Assembly: GCA_023898465.1 (NCBI GenBank) | Contig: CP060223.1 | Span: forward strand, 1,018,587 to 1,082,586 | Reading direction: 5' to 3' | Source: Candidatus Nomurabacteria bacterium | GTDB lineage: Bacteria > Patescibacteriota > Patescibacteriia > HK-STAS-PATE-3 | Length of the DNA: 64,000 bases | In this document: piece after piece, positions 19,495-54,931 of the stretch | Numbering within the stretch: position 1 is the stretch's first letter | How the letters are laid out: each line of letters opens with the position of its first letter | Notes under the pieces: model-generated | What the model saw: only the letters and a program-made list of their open reading frames with translations | Told to the model about the DNA's origin: nothing | Database searches by the model: none | Made by a program: the position numbers and the translations under genes

Positions 19495-20325
19495 TCAGGA
19501 CAGATGGAGACGTCGCATCAGCGATGGGATCGCCAGAGGAAGGTCATCGTCAGACAGTTTGGCAAGCTCAGGTAGAGCACCCTTAATCGCATGAAGTATG
19601 CGAGGCATCTTTTCAGAGGCGACACCGATTACCTTATCCTGCGTCGTTCCTTCATCAGGCTTGTCAGTGATGAGACAGACCGGGGTGACAGCCATGCCCA
19701 GTTCCCTGCCCAAGAATGCCTCGGGTAGAACAGTGAGCATGCCAGCAATCGTCACGCCGAGTGCGCGCATGCGTTTCACATCAGCGCGGGTTTCGAACTT
19801 TGGTCCGCGAATCACCTCAAGTGTTCCGAAATCACGCCACCCAATACCCTGCTGGGTGAGGTGATTGCTTACTTCGTGGTGCAGCATAACACTGAATGGA
19901 TTCGGCATGTCGCCGAAGAACTCGGGACCGTCGTCGGGTTCGGCGAAGCTCAGTCTGCCAAAGCATGGCGTAATACATTGGTTAGGTAAGACGACCTGAC
20001 CAATGTATGTCTTGTCTGCTACTCCTCCCACGAGACTCGTGCCGATGATCCGACGAACACCTATCTTCGCTAGAGCAGCGATGTAGATACGATGATCGAT
20101 GAACTGGGGGAGTATGTAATGTCCCGACTTGAGCGTTCGCCCGTACCCATGTCGGTTTACATGGGCAATCGGGATGTCGCCGACTCGGAAGACCTGAACG
20201 AACACGTTTCCACCTGTCGGAGGGTTCATCTCGTATTCTTGGTAGTCACCAAAGACGCTCTGCAGATCGTGCGCTCCAGTCCCTGTAGTAAGGGCAAAGC
20301 GGCAAAGAGGCGGTTGATGAGACAT
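19495..20325 (-). CDS. mtnP: Purine nucleoside / 5'-methylthioadenosine phosphorylase family (MTAP-like)
   Basis: IAHVNRHGYGRT...IAALAKIGVRRIIGTSLVGGV pattern of PNP/MTAP family. Start is the internal Met with a perfect RBS (ttaggaggagaatcATG); terminator hairpin at 19447-19485. Confidence 0.75.
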   Translation of the reverse strand: MSHQPPLCRFALTTGTGAHDLQSVFGDYQEYEMNPPTGGNVFVQVFRVGDIPIAHVNRHGYGRTLKSGHYILPQFIDHRIYIAALAKIGVRRIIGTSLVGGVADKTYIGQVVLPNQCITPCFGRLSFAEPDDGPEFFGDMPNPFSVMLHHEVSNHLTQQGIGWRDFGTLEVIRGPKFETRADVKRMRALGVTIAGMLTVLPEAFLGRELGMAVTPVCLITDKPDEGTTQDKVIGVASEKMPRILHAIKGALPELAKLSDDDLPLAIPSLMRRLHLS

Positions 20326-20451
20326 GATTCTCCTCCTAAGGTTTGCGCTTTCAAGGATCTTTCTTTCTCTTAGCATGGCGAAATAAGAGCTTACAAGTAC
20401 CATTGTCCACATTTTATTGACATGTACGCATAAAATATGGCGAAATACCCC

Positions 20452-20480
20452 TTGACAAGGCTTTTCGGCAGCAGTATACT
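20452..20480 (+). promoter_or_regulatory. Near-consensus sigma70 promoter TTGACA-17-TATACT heading the 23S-5S rRNA leader
   Basis: ttgacaaggcttttcggcagcagtatact. Confidence 0.6.
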
Positions 20481-20577
20481 GTCTGCGCATTATTCAATCG
20501 TAGCTTTTCACGATATGACTCAGTTACTTACTCCTAATACTACCGTCGGCTAATACCGAGCCTTTTTCGTTCGGTTG

Positions 20578-20601
20578 CGCCGCCGGAAGGCGGTTTTTTA
20601 G
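20578..20601 (+). terminator. Terminator-like hairpin (ccgcc-ggaa-ggcgg) plus T6 inside the rRNA leader, about 100 nt after the promoter
   Basis: gcgccgccggaaggcggtttttt. Confidence 0.45.
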
Positions 20602-21116
20602 TCCTCAGGCCCTTTCACAACTGGAATATCGAGATATAAAGCTGGTCGACAGCACGCTGTCCATCAACTTTGTACCTTGAATTGTCGAGAGGGAGTTAGC
20701 CAGCTGGCTATATGGGACGTGGTCCCTGACGCTTGAGCTGACCCGGTCTAATGCTGACCCCTTTCGCTGTTGCGCCAGACTATCGGATTTCGGCAGTGGA
20801 TCCATCCCCGGGAAAAACTCTGAAAACCTCTCTAGTCCGGCGTAACTCTTCGACTGCACTGCAACACCCCTCCTTATGTTGGCTGGTAGTTCCAAATCCC
20901 ATCCTTCCTAAAGACGTGTTGCAGTGCAGTCCCTTTTTCTCCCTTGAACTGATGCGGGAATGACTCGATCTCGATTGTGTCGTTCCCGTGTCTGCTCAAG
21001 GCATGAACCTTGAAAACTGAATGATGATGCGGATAACCCAAATATCTACACATGTTAGTTAGTAAGTTAGTTTAGTTAGTGTTTCGTAACGGAAGAATTC
21101 TTAATTCTAACGTTAC

Positions 21117-24203
<3,087 letters not shown>

Positions 24204-24451
24204 AACATTAGAGTTTGGAATAACGAATGCAACAAACATTGACATTCGAGTTATTCCGCGTCATCATTCTTTGCAGCTATGGAAAGACTTAAGCAATTTC
24301 GTGTCAGTCTGAGTCTGATTATCCTCGGATTGGTAGTAACGGCCTTTGTTGGAATCGTTTTAGCCGTCTCGCCAGCCACGTTAATTGGTCCACAATAGTC
24401 CTATTCATGAGGGGCCGGTGGGTAGTAATTCGTCCTAGGCGGATTACTAGC

Positions 24452-24568
24452 CTCCGGTGCTTCAAGCGATGAGGTCACACCCGATCCCATTCCGAACTCG
24501 GTCGTTAAGCTCATCAGCGCTGATGATACTACGGGGCATACCGTTGGGAAAGTAAGCCAGTGCCGGTT
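24452..24568 (+). rRNA. rrf: 5S ribosomal RNA
   Basis: ...cacccgatcccattccgaactcggtcgttaagctcatcagcgctgatgatactacgggg... with terminal helix ccggtgc/gtgccgg; T-rich terminator follows at 24575-24615. Confidence 0.85.
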
Positions 24569-24677
24569 TATCAAGAAACTCTTGGAGAAATTCAGGAGTT
24601 TTTTGTTTTTTTGCCCGTGTGCTAGGCTGTAAATAAGGATGTCGGGGATAGTTCTTTGGAAAAGGAGGACAGGACGC

Positions 24678-25403
24678 ATGCGACCTATCATGTTTGTTAT
24701 CTGGCTGCTGGTAGTCAGCAGTATTGGGCTTGGGATCGCCCAAGCCAACCCTCGCACGGATCGGCAGGACCTCCTGATCGAGGATCAGGTAGCTCCTCAC
24801 TTTGAGTTGAGGGAGGCACTGGGTAACGATGGCTACAACACCATCTTCGATGGCCAAGTCATCGAGGCTGACCAGCTGACTCAGCTCATTGCGGTTGTCG
24901 ATACGATGAGCGCCAACGACGTCGAGTACGTGGAGTTTGTCTGGCGACCCATCGGCGAGACCAACTGGAACCTGATCGATGCAGATCTGCATATCAAGGA
25001 CGGTGTCACTTGGGAACTCGGATCCTGGCAACCGGTGGATCTAGGCTATCCTATCATCGAGCTGGCTCCAGTCGGAGTTGACTACGTTGGAAATGTGGAT
25101 TGGAATCCGGAGACGCTGATCATCAGAACCTCGGCTTCAGCTCCATCGGCACCAGTGCGGCTGCGAGTCTACCGTGCTGGAGATGCTGGATATCAATTCC
25201 AGCTCATGTCACAGGGCGTACCTTCGGAGATTCAGATCTTCAATGTCGCCGGGCGTCGAGTCGCCCTACTGCCTGTACCGAGCAATGCGGAGCGCGTTAC
25301 TTGGTCAGGTCGTAGCATGAGCGGCGAGCAGGTCGCCAACGGCGTTTACTTCGCCCGAGTAGCTGACAGCGATCAGCAAGCTCGAGTCGTGGTTCTGCGC
25401 TAG
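24678..25403 (+). CDS. Secreted hypothetical protein with a C-terminal T9SS/Por-type sorting-domain-like (or FlgD-Ig-like) tail; GC-rich
   Basis: RBS AAGGAGG; signal peptide MRPIMFVIWLLVVSSIGLGIAQA; C-terminus IQIFNVAGRRVALLP...W.G....G..VANGVYFARV...ARVVVLR. Confidence 0.5.
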   Translation: MRPIMFVIWLLVVSSIGLGIAQANPRTDRQDLLIEDQVAPHFELREALGNDGYNTIFDGQVIEADQLTQLIAVVDTMSANDVEYVEFVWRPIGETNWNLIDADLHIKDGVTWELGSWQPVDLGYPIIELAPVGVDYVGNVDWNPETLIIRTSASAPSAPVRLRVYRAGDAGYQFQLMSQGVPSEIQIFNVAGRRVALLPVPSNAERVTWSGRSMSGEQVANGVYFARVADSDQQARVVVLR

Positions 25404-54792: not shown

Positions 54793-54931
54793 AAGTTGGT
54801 CTATTTAGATAAATTAGCCATTTCACACAACTCGTTCTTATGCGAATACCCCCATTCTCCTCCATTATACTGAAGCTGGCAAATATCTTTATTGACCCCA
54901 TACAAAAGCCCAATTACGCTATACTATATAT

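Follow-up and report, generated by a model that had tools for sequence, protein, structure and literature searches.

The 23S-5S ribosomal RNA (rRNA) operon in a 64,000-nucleotide (nt) stretch of Candidatus Nomurabacteria bacterium DNA (contig CP060223.1; this whole 64-kb stretch is hereafter the window) is preceded by a compact leader unit, in which a predicted promoter, a 12-codon open reading frame (ORF), a small hairpin and an intrinsic terminator follow one another. Quite probably this unit works as a terminator/antiterminator switch of one sort or another in the leader of the 23S. A reading of the window made from the sequence alone (the sequence-only reading) had raised attenuation at the hairpin as one alternative, and this is the alternative that we favour, given that the end of the 12-codon ORF complements the 5′ arm of the terminator and that the two resulting folds are mutually exclusive. 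From these sequence features we lean towards a ribosome-dependent transcription attenuator. A broader proposal, that a clade of Patescibacteria gates 23S-5S synthesis through a leader-peptide attenuator that reads ribosome availability, with the translated leader aborting and the untranslated leader proceeding, is offered more tentatively, as a possibility rather than an expectation.

A conserved leader unit precedes the 23S rRNA gene

The unit consists of the following features of the window.

20452–20480, plus strand: predicted promoter, with −35 box TTGACA (20452–20457), 17-bp spacer and −10 box TATACT (20475–20480), matching at 11 of 12 positions
20515–20553, plus strand: leader mini-ORF, 12 codons including the ATG and then TAA, encoding MTQLLTPNTTVG, without a Shine-Dalgarno motif
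20543–20550, plus strand: putative 5′ strand of the antiterminator ('A'), CCGTCGGC, which takes in portions of the last three sense codons and pairs with 20579–20586 (RNAfold)
20555–20575, plus strand: inner hairpin ACCGAGC/GUUCGGU, within the antiterminator helix (RNAfold)
20579–20599, plus strand: predicted intrinsic terminator, with stem GCCGCC/GGCGGT and loop GGAA (20579–20594) and T-run 20594–20599 (scan and folding)

Relatives for comparison (labelled L001–L015, with W for the window) were picked through 23S or a neighbouring gene, never through the leader. A homologue search with the upstream PNP-family gene returned a single relative, at 54% identity, on L001, where the order PNP, leader, 23S and 5S is as in W; a metagenome scan with a 23-nt string inside 23S gave six 23S loci (L003–L008); and homologues of prs, which adjoins one of these six, gave three further 23S loci (L010, L012 and L013). 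The scored set comprised ten loci: W, L001, L003, L004, L005, L006, L008, L010, L012 and L013. L007 was left out because its sequence begins only 600 nt before 23S, and three further loci reached through prs, L011, L014 and L015, contribute nothing for want of a 23S in the vicinity. Scans of genome contigs with a 23S 5′ pattern and with the element pattern, and of viral contigs with the 23S pattern, gave no match. The set is deep, as full-length 23S identity among W, L001, L003 and L004 is only 75–86%, and it contains two subfamilies, one of three loci (W, L001 and L008) and one of five (L003, L006, L010, L012 and L013).

Promoter, ATG ORF of 12–13 codons, small hairpin and intrinsic terminator are present in all ten loci, always on the 23S strand and directly upstream of 23S. 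The leaders of W and L001 are unalignable except for one block, which runs from the promoter to the T-run. Across the loci, the T-run ends 148–161 nt from the −35 box, and the ATG follows the start of that box by 63–73 nt. The genes further upstream vary (the PNP gene, a NAD-binding protein with purD, prs with a tRNA, or an Ig-domain protein), which indicates that the unit belongs to 23S. An architecture script, requiring a terminator, an ATG ORF of 8–20 codons whose end precedes it by 18–39 nt, and a duplex energy no weaker than −7 kcal/mol, recovered the ten leader elements and two weak unrelated matches from 461 kb (both strands counted) of the window, all loci and E. coli rrnH.

The site at 20452–20480, which the sequence-only reading had described as a TTGACA-17-TATACT promoter, is the sole plus-strand match of at least 9 of 12 positions in 20326–21116, and its best reading is as the predicted promoter of the 23S-5S operon. 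Transcription would start near 20487, about 7 nt after the −10 box, and the terminator hairpin begins about 92 nt from there, in agreement with the earlier description of a leader of about 630 nt with a hairpin some 100 nt into it. In all seven loci scanned by script, the leader's best promoter match falls at the homologous position (9–12 of 12), and the promoters of L010, L012 and L013 read TTGACA with TATACT or TATAAT. Shuffles of the region contain 4.4 promoter-like and 5.2 terminator-like sites, so that the single sites of W are not above chance, and the case for a real promoter and terminator comes from the nine other loci. The sequence-only reading had also considered that the real rRNA promoter might lie further downstream, for which we find no support: between the terminator and 23S there is no promoter match of at least 9 of 12 in W, L006 and L004, and of the weak promoter-like matches that other loci have there, most overlap boxA.

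Upstream of the −35 box, A-rich tracts occur in most loci. W, L001 and L008 keep, 15–45 nt before the −35 box and within otherwise diverged DNA, the motif TCCACAT-N3-4-(A)TTGAC followed by such a tract. In sequence terms this is a candidate UP-like element, and it may equally be a second promoter or a divergent promoter of the upstream gene.

20406–20438, plus strand: conserved motif TCCACAT-N3-ATTGACA (20406–20422) and A-rich tract (20430–20438), kept in W, L001 and L008

The leader ORF keeps its frame and length

The ORF has 12 codons in nine of the ten loci and 13 in L005, with no indels and the same end point, and the distance from its stop codon to the terminator stem is 25–30 nt in every locus. 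When the region from the predicted start site to the stop codon was shuffled, an ATG ORF of 12–13 codons ending at that stop arose with P = 0.006–0.017 per lineage; the product over five lineages, 2e-10, is an upper estimate of the significance, since the lineages share ancestry. Selection appears, from the sequences, to act on the frame and length of the ORF and not on the peptide, as expected of a regulatory leader ORF. The encoded peptides are as follows.

W: MTQLLTPNTTVG
L001: MTTLLTINNTDG
L008: MTVLLTINNTDG
L004: MGTQVGKEISVG
L003: MVKSLNIRKKGG
L012: MRKSLSLTKKGG
L006: MRKKLVLTIKSG
L013: MQKSLSVTIKSG
L010: MQKILNLLNKSG
L005: MNKNTLFTNKLPS

The lack of a Shine-Dalgarno motif is no objection to translation here, because a Shine-Dalgarno-like motif precedes the first ATG in only 4 of the 43 long ORFs of the window. 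Many ATGs of the window directly follow −10-like boxes (TATACT, TACAAT and TAGTAT, for example at 54895 on the plus strand, 3576 on the minus strand and 4982 on the plus strand), a pattern suggesting that mRNAs with no leader or a very short one are widespread in this genome.

Amino-acid sensing by the leader ORF was considered and rejected, as MTQLLTPNTTVG, MVKSLNIRKKGG, MNKNTLFTNKLPS, MGTQVGKEISVG and the other peptides share no enriched residue. Separately, codon 3 is AAA in six of the ten loci, Leu stands at codon 4 or 5 in eight and the last sense codon is Gly in nine, preferences that could reflect start-site efficiency or termination kinetics. The last codon also co-varies with the terminator arm, as GGC:GCC, GGG:CCC or AGC:GCU.

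The end of the ORF and the terminator are predicted to form competing helices

The sequence-only reading had noted the hairpin and its T6 at 20578–20601; both are present, while the coordinates were off by 1–2 nt and are given here as 20579–20599. The T-run of W consists of six T, the first of which closes the stem, and the hairpin alone is predicted at −11.1 kcal/mol. Across the ten loci the terminator hairpins reach −9.6 to −11.1 kcal/mol, with a GC stem of 6–7 bp followed by T4–T6. The hairpin was also considered as the terminator of a minus-strand gene and rejected in that role, since the minus strand then reads GCAACCGAACG, with no T-run, and no gene converges on it.

In W, RNAfold pairs CCGUCGGC (20543–20550) with GCCGCCGG (20579–20586) around the inner hairpin, and the duplex, at −12.7 kcal/mol against a shuffled mean of −5.3, has P = 0.0065. 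The end of the ORF pairs with the terminator 5′ arm in all ten loci, at −7.2 to −15.0 kcal/mol and with a shuffle P of 0.001–0.017 each. The pairing sequences vary, from GGCGG:CCGCC in L003 and AGCGGG:CCCGCU in L013 to the 9-bp CUUCCAAGC:GCUUGGAAG in L005, and in L004 a perfect helix of 7 bp forms with the register displaced by 3 nt. Because MAFFT columns put the terminator arms and antiterminator in differing registers between the subfamilies, per-sequence energy and shuffle tests and one column count were used in place of a covariance model. In that count, the helix in the W register is paired in 70% of the cells of the MAFFT alignment, against 28–53% when the partner is slid by 1–3 columns. 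A hairpin is predicted at the inner position in all ten loci, in unrelated sequences and most weakly in L008; it is a candidate RNA polymerase pause hairpin.

When the transcript is cut before the terminator 3′ arm, the predicted minimum free energy (MFE) structure is the antiterminator in all ten loci (RNAfold). At full length, the antiterminator and terminator folds differ by only ~0–3 kcal/mol in the seven loci computed for both; four of the ten loci have the antiterminator as their MFE structure and the other six the terminator. The folding predictions thus show two mutually exclusive helices in a near-balanced switch. Rfam searches of the element returned no family in W (E up to 10) or in six relatives (E up to 5), nor, at gathering thresholds only, in L010, L012 and L013; known leaders, riboswitches, T-box, SRP, 6S and tmRNA were not detected at the element in the permissive searches.

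A ribosome-dependent attenuation model

Taking these features together, we propose that the first ~113 nt of the transcript would act as a ribosome-dependent attenuator. During transcription, the last codons of the ORF (20543–20550) would pair with the terminator 5′ arm (20579–20586) around the inner hairpin, so that the antiterminator would form ahead of the terminator 3′ arm and polymerase would continue along an untranslated leader. Read-through is the expected outcome for such a leader because the antiterminator can form before the terminator 3′ arm exists. The polymerase would then pass the boxA-like motif, where a Nus antitermination complex is expected to load, and transcribe 23S and 5S. 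In a translated leader, a ribosome at the last codons or the stop codon would instead mask the antiterminator strand and leave the terminator stem, 25–30 nt further on, free; the terminator would fold, transcription would stop at the U-tract and an RNA of ~113 nt would be released. In the model for trp-type attenuators, a ribosome at the stop codon covers roughly 12–15 nt downstream, a reach that would here take in the antiterminator strand together with some of the inner hairpin. Termination is therefore the expected outcome of translation, because a terminator 25–30 nt away would stay uncovered.

The model supposes that the ORF is translated and that the inner hairpin pauses polymerase so that the ribosome can catch up. 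The direction of the switch and its physiological meaning, a negative feedback of translating capacity on rRNA synthesis, are likewise suppositions of the model. The output would be less rRNA when ribosomes load quickly on the nascent RNA and more when translation capacity is short.

Points against the model and alternative explanations

Several observations weigh against ribosome-dependent attenuation. All of its support comes from sequence and thermodynamic prediction, and it requires a ribosome to translate 12 codons while polymerase makes ~90 nt, which needs a pause that is postulated only. The peptide is not conserved across lineages, and differences by codon position number 41/36/33 in subfamily B, to which L003, L006 and L010 belong, with no third-position bias; what speaks for translation is therefore the kept start, frame, length and stop alone, and the ATG and stop could in principle be kept as RNA sequence. 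The L006 duplex is weak (−7.2 kcal/mol), the antiterminator core of three central G-C pairs is nearly invariant, and covariation is modest, with three pairs changing on both sides, a count reached in 130 of 500 shuffles. In L001, L008, L005, L004, L006 and L010 the full-length MFE structure is the terminator form, so that read-through in these six loci would hang on co-transcriptional kinetics. Finally, non-consensus promoter types may lie downstream of the terminator.

Were the unit instead an independent small gene beside 23S, encoding a small RNA (sRNA) of ~113 nt or a micropeptide of 12 residues, with 23S transcribed from an unrecognised promoter or by leakage through the terminator, then its strong promoter and canonical terminator would make a complete transcription unit, its constant length would be natural, and so would the better conservation of the ORF region than of the 5′ untranslated region in W, L001 and L008; the weak promoter-like matches between terminator and 23S in some loci fit this as well. 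A short RNA product is also compatible with attenuation, as an attenuator too would release one. Against a separate gene stand the invariable placement of the unit, on the same strand directly before 23S in 10 of 10 loci with differing flanking genes, and the fact that the 461 kb scanned hold no further strong copies, only the two weak unrelated matches. No second promoter of at least 9 of 12 is seen in W, L006 and L004, and several of the weak matches elsewhere overlap boxA. Neither the peptide nor any RNA outside the stems is conserved between subfamilies, which would be unusual for a trans-acting product, and the kept complementarity between ORF end and terminator arm would compete with the gene's own terminator. 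We therefore regard a separate gene as unlikely.

The two exclusive, nearly isoenergetic folds would serve just as well for an RNA switch governed by a protein (such as a ribosomal protein or a Nus factor), by a small molecule or by nucleotide-dependent pausing, with the ORF incidental, and both the missing Shine-Dalgarno motif and the absence of codon-position bias among the substitutions agree with an incidental ORF. Such a switch would leave unexplained why an ATG lies exactly 12 codons (13 in one locus) before the stop in the antiterminator strand in all ten loci and why the stop-to-terminator spacing stays at 25–30 nt. It would also call for a ligand or protein pocket, whereas no loop or bulge sequence is kept across subfamilies, only stems and geometry, and no Rfam riboswitch or leader family was found in W and six relatives at permissive thresholds; we consider it rather improbable. 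Least probable in our view, and quite doubtful, is a terminator that leaks constitutively, or a hairpin of structural or processing function, without any part in regulation, at which rrn antitermination helps read-through. The stem is short, at 6–7 bp, and every leader has a boxA-like motif; this motif, however, lies past the hairpin in every locus (~410 nt in W), and the stem with its T-run, the ORF and the competing helix are all kept while the leaders are otherwise randomised, which argues for selection on a switch.

The downstream leader and the 23S-5S operon

The remaining features of the operon are as follows.

20600–21009, plus strand: variable leader part, conserved neither in sequence nor in length, with near-random identity to L001
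21010–21023, plus strand: boxA-like motif TTGAAAACTGAATG (pattern TT[GA]A[CA]AAYTGAATA-like)
21019–21037, plus strand: 23S processing stem, 5′ strand (cofolding with 24250–24269)
21117–24203, plus strand: 23S rRNA, 3087 nt (Rfam LSU_rRNA_bacteria, 2546 bits, model positions 1–2925, complete)
21352–21409, 21457–21602 and 23668–23715, plus strand: 23S expansion segments (alignment to E. coli rrlH)
24250–24269, plus strand: 23S processing stem, 3′ strand, in the 23S-5S spacer (cofolding with 21019–21037)
24453–24568, plus strand: 5S rRNA (Rfam match, 85 bits)
24572–24612, plus strand: operon-end terminator-like hairpin and T-run

Among the loci, 23S starts 154–917 nt past the terminator. Motifs resembling boxA lie 71–224 nt before 23S in eight loci and are also present in L010, L012 and L013 (11 of 11 loci); the L006 motif reads CCTTAACAATTTATCAG, which we take to be close to the E. 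coli rrn boxA. The sequence-only reading had proposed a search for antitermination motifs in the leader, and a motif was indeed found, but in every locus it is downstream of the terminator, ~410 nt past the hairpin in W, and so cannot explain read-through there: a complex loaded at boxA cannot act at a terminator that is transcribed before it. Within the variable part of the W leader, a perfect 16-bp hairpin is formed by 20852–20867 and 20917–20932 (arms GACTGCACTGCAACAC and GTGTTGCAGTGCAGTC); its loop begins with CCCCTCCTT, which is anti-Shine-Dalgarno-like, and L001 has a different stem sequence around the same CCCCTCCTT.

The operon contains no 16S, as had been noticed from the sequence: Rfam finds no small-subunit (SSU) rRNA in the 64-kb window, nor in the available stretch of any fetched relative locus. 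A degraded 16S or spacer upstream of 23S was rejected as well, since 20326–21116 gives no SSU or tRNA signal. The window holds four tRNAs. The 23S-5S spacer is 249 nt long, and a promoter candidate within it (TTGACA-17-CATCAT, 24239–24267) was rejected because it is the 3′ strand of the processing stem.

At 3087 nt, against 2925 positions of the Rfam model, the 23S is as long as the earlier estimate of about 3.09 kb. Aligning it to a reference, as had been suggested, placed the expansions relative to E. coli rrlH: an insertion of 58 nt follows E. coli position 232, two of 81 and 54 nt lie around 279–290, and one of 48 nt follows position 2401, the whole being partly cancelled by small deletions. 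All are too short for an intron ORF, consistent with the earlier remark that none is present. The domain-I expansion sites are common to L001, L003 and L004, and the +48 site to L001. Further inserts occur after position 1168 in L001 and after position 646 in L004 (E. coli numbering). Unlinked rRNA genes and rRNA insertions have already been reported for Patescibacteria (bioRxiv 10.1101/705046), and the missing 16S linkage and the long 23S are thus real but known traits of the group.

Neighbouring genes

19495–20325, minus strand: PNP_UDP_1-family phosphorylase, upstream of the rRNA operon, with start ATG at 20325 preceded by AGGAGG

The PNP-family protein is identical to a deposited hypothetical protein, H6760_05170, of Candidatus Nomurabacteria bacterium. 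Its real start is at 20325, so the listed ORF start at 20490, which would run across the rRNA promoter, is wrong and the intergenic region is 20326–21116. With its AGGAGG, this gene is an exception to the scarcity of Shine-Dalgarno motifs in the window.

On the other side, directly after the 5S terminator, the protein encoded at 24639–25403 (plus strand) has a C-terminal FlgD_ig-like domain, at 23.9 bits and thus below the Pfam cut-off of 27; its resemblance to a secretion sorting domain comes as a surprise in a Candidate Phyla Radiation (CPR) genome. In subfamily-B loci, purD (GARS) and prs are found near the 23S operon (L003 595–2775, L010 5473–6756, L011 3602–4900 and L006 6886–7875). A tRNA of class-II length adjoins prs in each prs-bearing locus (L006 and L010–L013), and in W a tRNA-Leu lies 2 kb upstream of the element; the tRNA-23S neighbourhood may be ancestral.

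Implications and comparison with known systems

Bacterial growth has its main cost and its main point of control in rRNA synthesis, which in model organisms is regulated at promoters. If the model holds, it would describe a physical, cis-acting feedback of ribosomes on rRNA synthesis, in which the ribosomes of reduced-genome bacteria use the nascent rRNA leader to gauge how much capacity they have to spare and so set rRNA output, and the old idea of ribosome feedback would become testable on a DNA element of ~150 bp. The regulation of unlinked 23S-5S operons would be explained as well, and a small 'translation-capacity sensor' part would become available. Should the model prove wrong, the unit would still mark an undescribed small RNA that always precedes 23S in this clade.

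Leader-peptide attenuation is textbook knowledge for amino-acid operons and some resistance genes. Full-text searches of an incomplete body of literature gave no description of a leader ORF or attenuator before a bacterial rRNA operon, which is absence of evidence only; as far as found, the mechanism would be a known one, applied to a target and with a logic for which the literature gave no precedent.

The amino-acid attenuators (trpL, hisL, thrL, leuL, pheL and ilvL) likewise combine a short leader ORF with an intrinsic terminator tens of nt past its stop, and in them, too, an alternative helix sequesters the terminator 5′ arm; in the trp model, a ribosome at the stop codon leads to the terminator, and the hairpin after the ORF here could pause polymerase as trp 1:2 does. 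By contrast, the leader peptides here have no run of cognate codons, and two helices compete instead of three. Given that no 'region 1' is present to sequester the antiterminator, an untranslated leader should read through and not super-attenuate. Amino-acid attenuators control biosynthetic enzymes and have curated Rfam leader families, whereas the unit here precedes 23S and 5S rRNA and matches none of these families. Leaders that sense antibiotics (erm, cat and ABCF-type), some of which act through transcription termination, share with it a very short, non-conserved ORF and a fold chosen by ribosome occupancy; they differ in serving resistance genes and in relying on a drug-stalled ribosome at a defined codon, while no recognisable stalling motif is found here.

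Canonical rrn leaders and spacers carry boxA and then the 5′ strand of the processing stem. The same arrangement, a boxA-like motif directly before the 5′ strand of the 23S processing stem, links the present leaders to rrn antitermination (boxA, NusB/NusE, NusA and NusG), with the difference that boxA here follows the hairpin, so that an extra decision point would precede the loading of the antitermination complex. The unlinked rRNA genes described for Patescibacteria likewise have 23S-5S apart from 16S and a 23S lengthened by insertions, but that study leaves the leader and its regulation undescribed, with the word 'leader' absent and 'promoter' used once (bioRxiv 10.1101/705046).

The proposed output has its closest parallel in the ribosome feedback (Nomura) model, in which excess free translating capacity likewise lowers rRNA transcription. 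To our knowledge, ribosome feedback on rRNA has been described only at the level of the promoter, by signals such as ppGpp and the initiating nucleoside triphosphate (NTP); pausing or attenuation in the rrnB leader in vitro was reportedly observed in 1981. Control of rRNA in E. coli acts at the promoter, through ppGpp and the initiating NTP and with no leader ORF, whereas the sensor proposed here would be the ribosome itself on the nascent leader.

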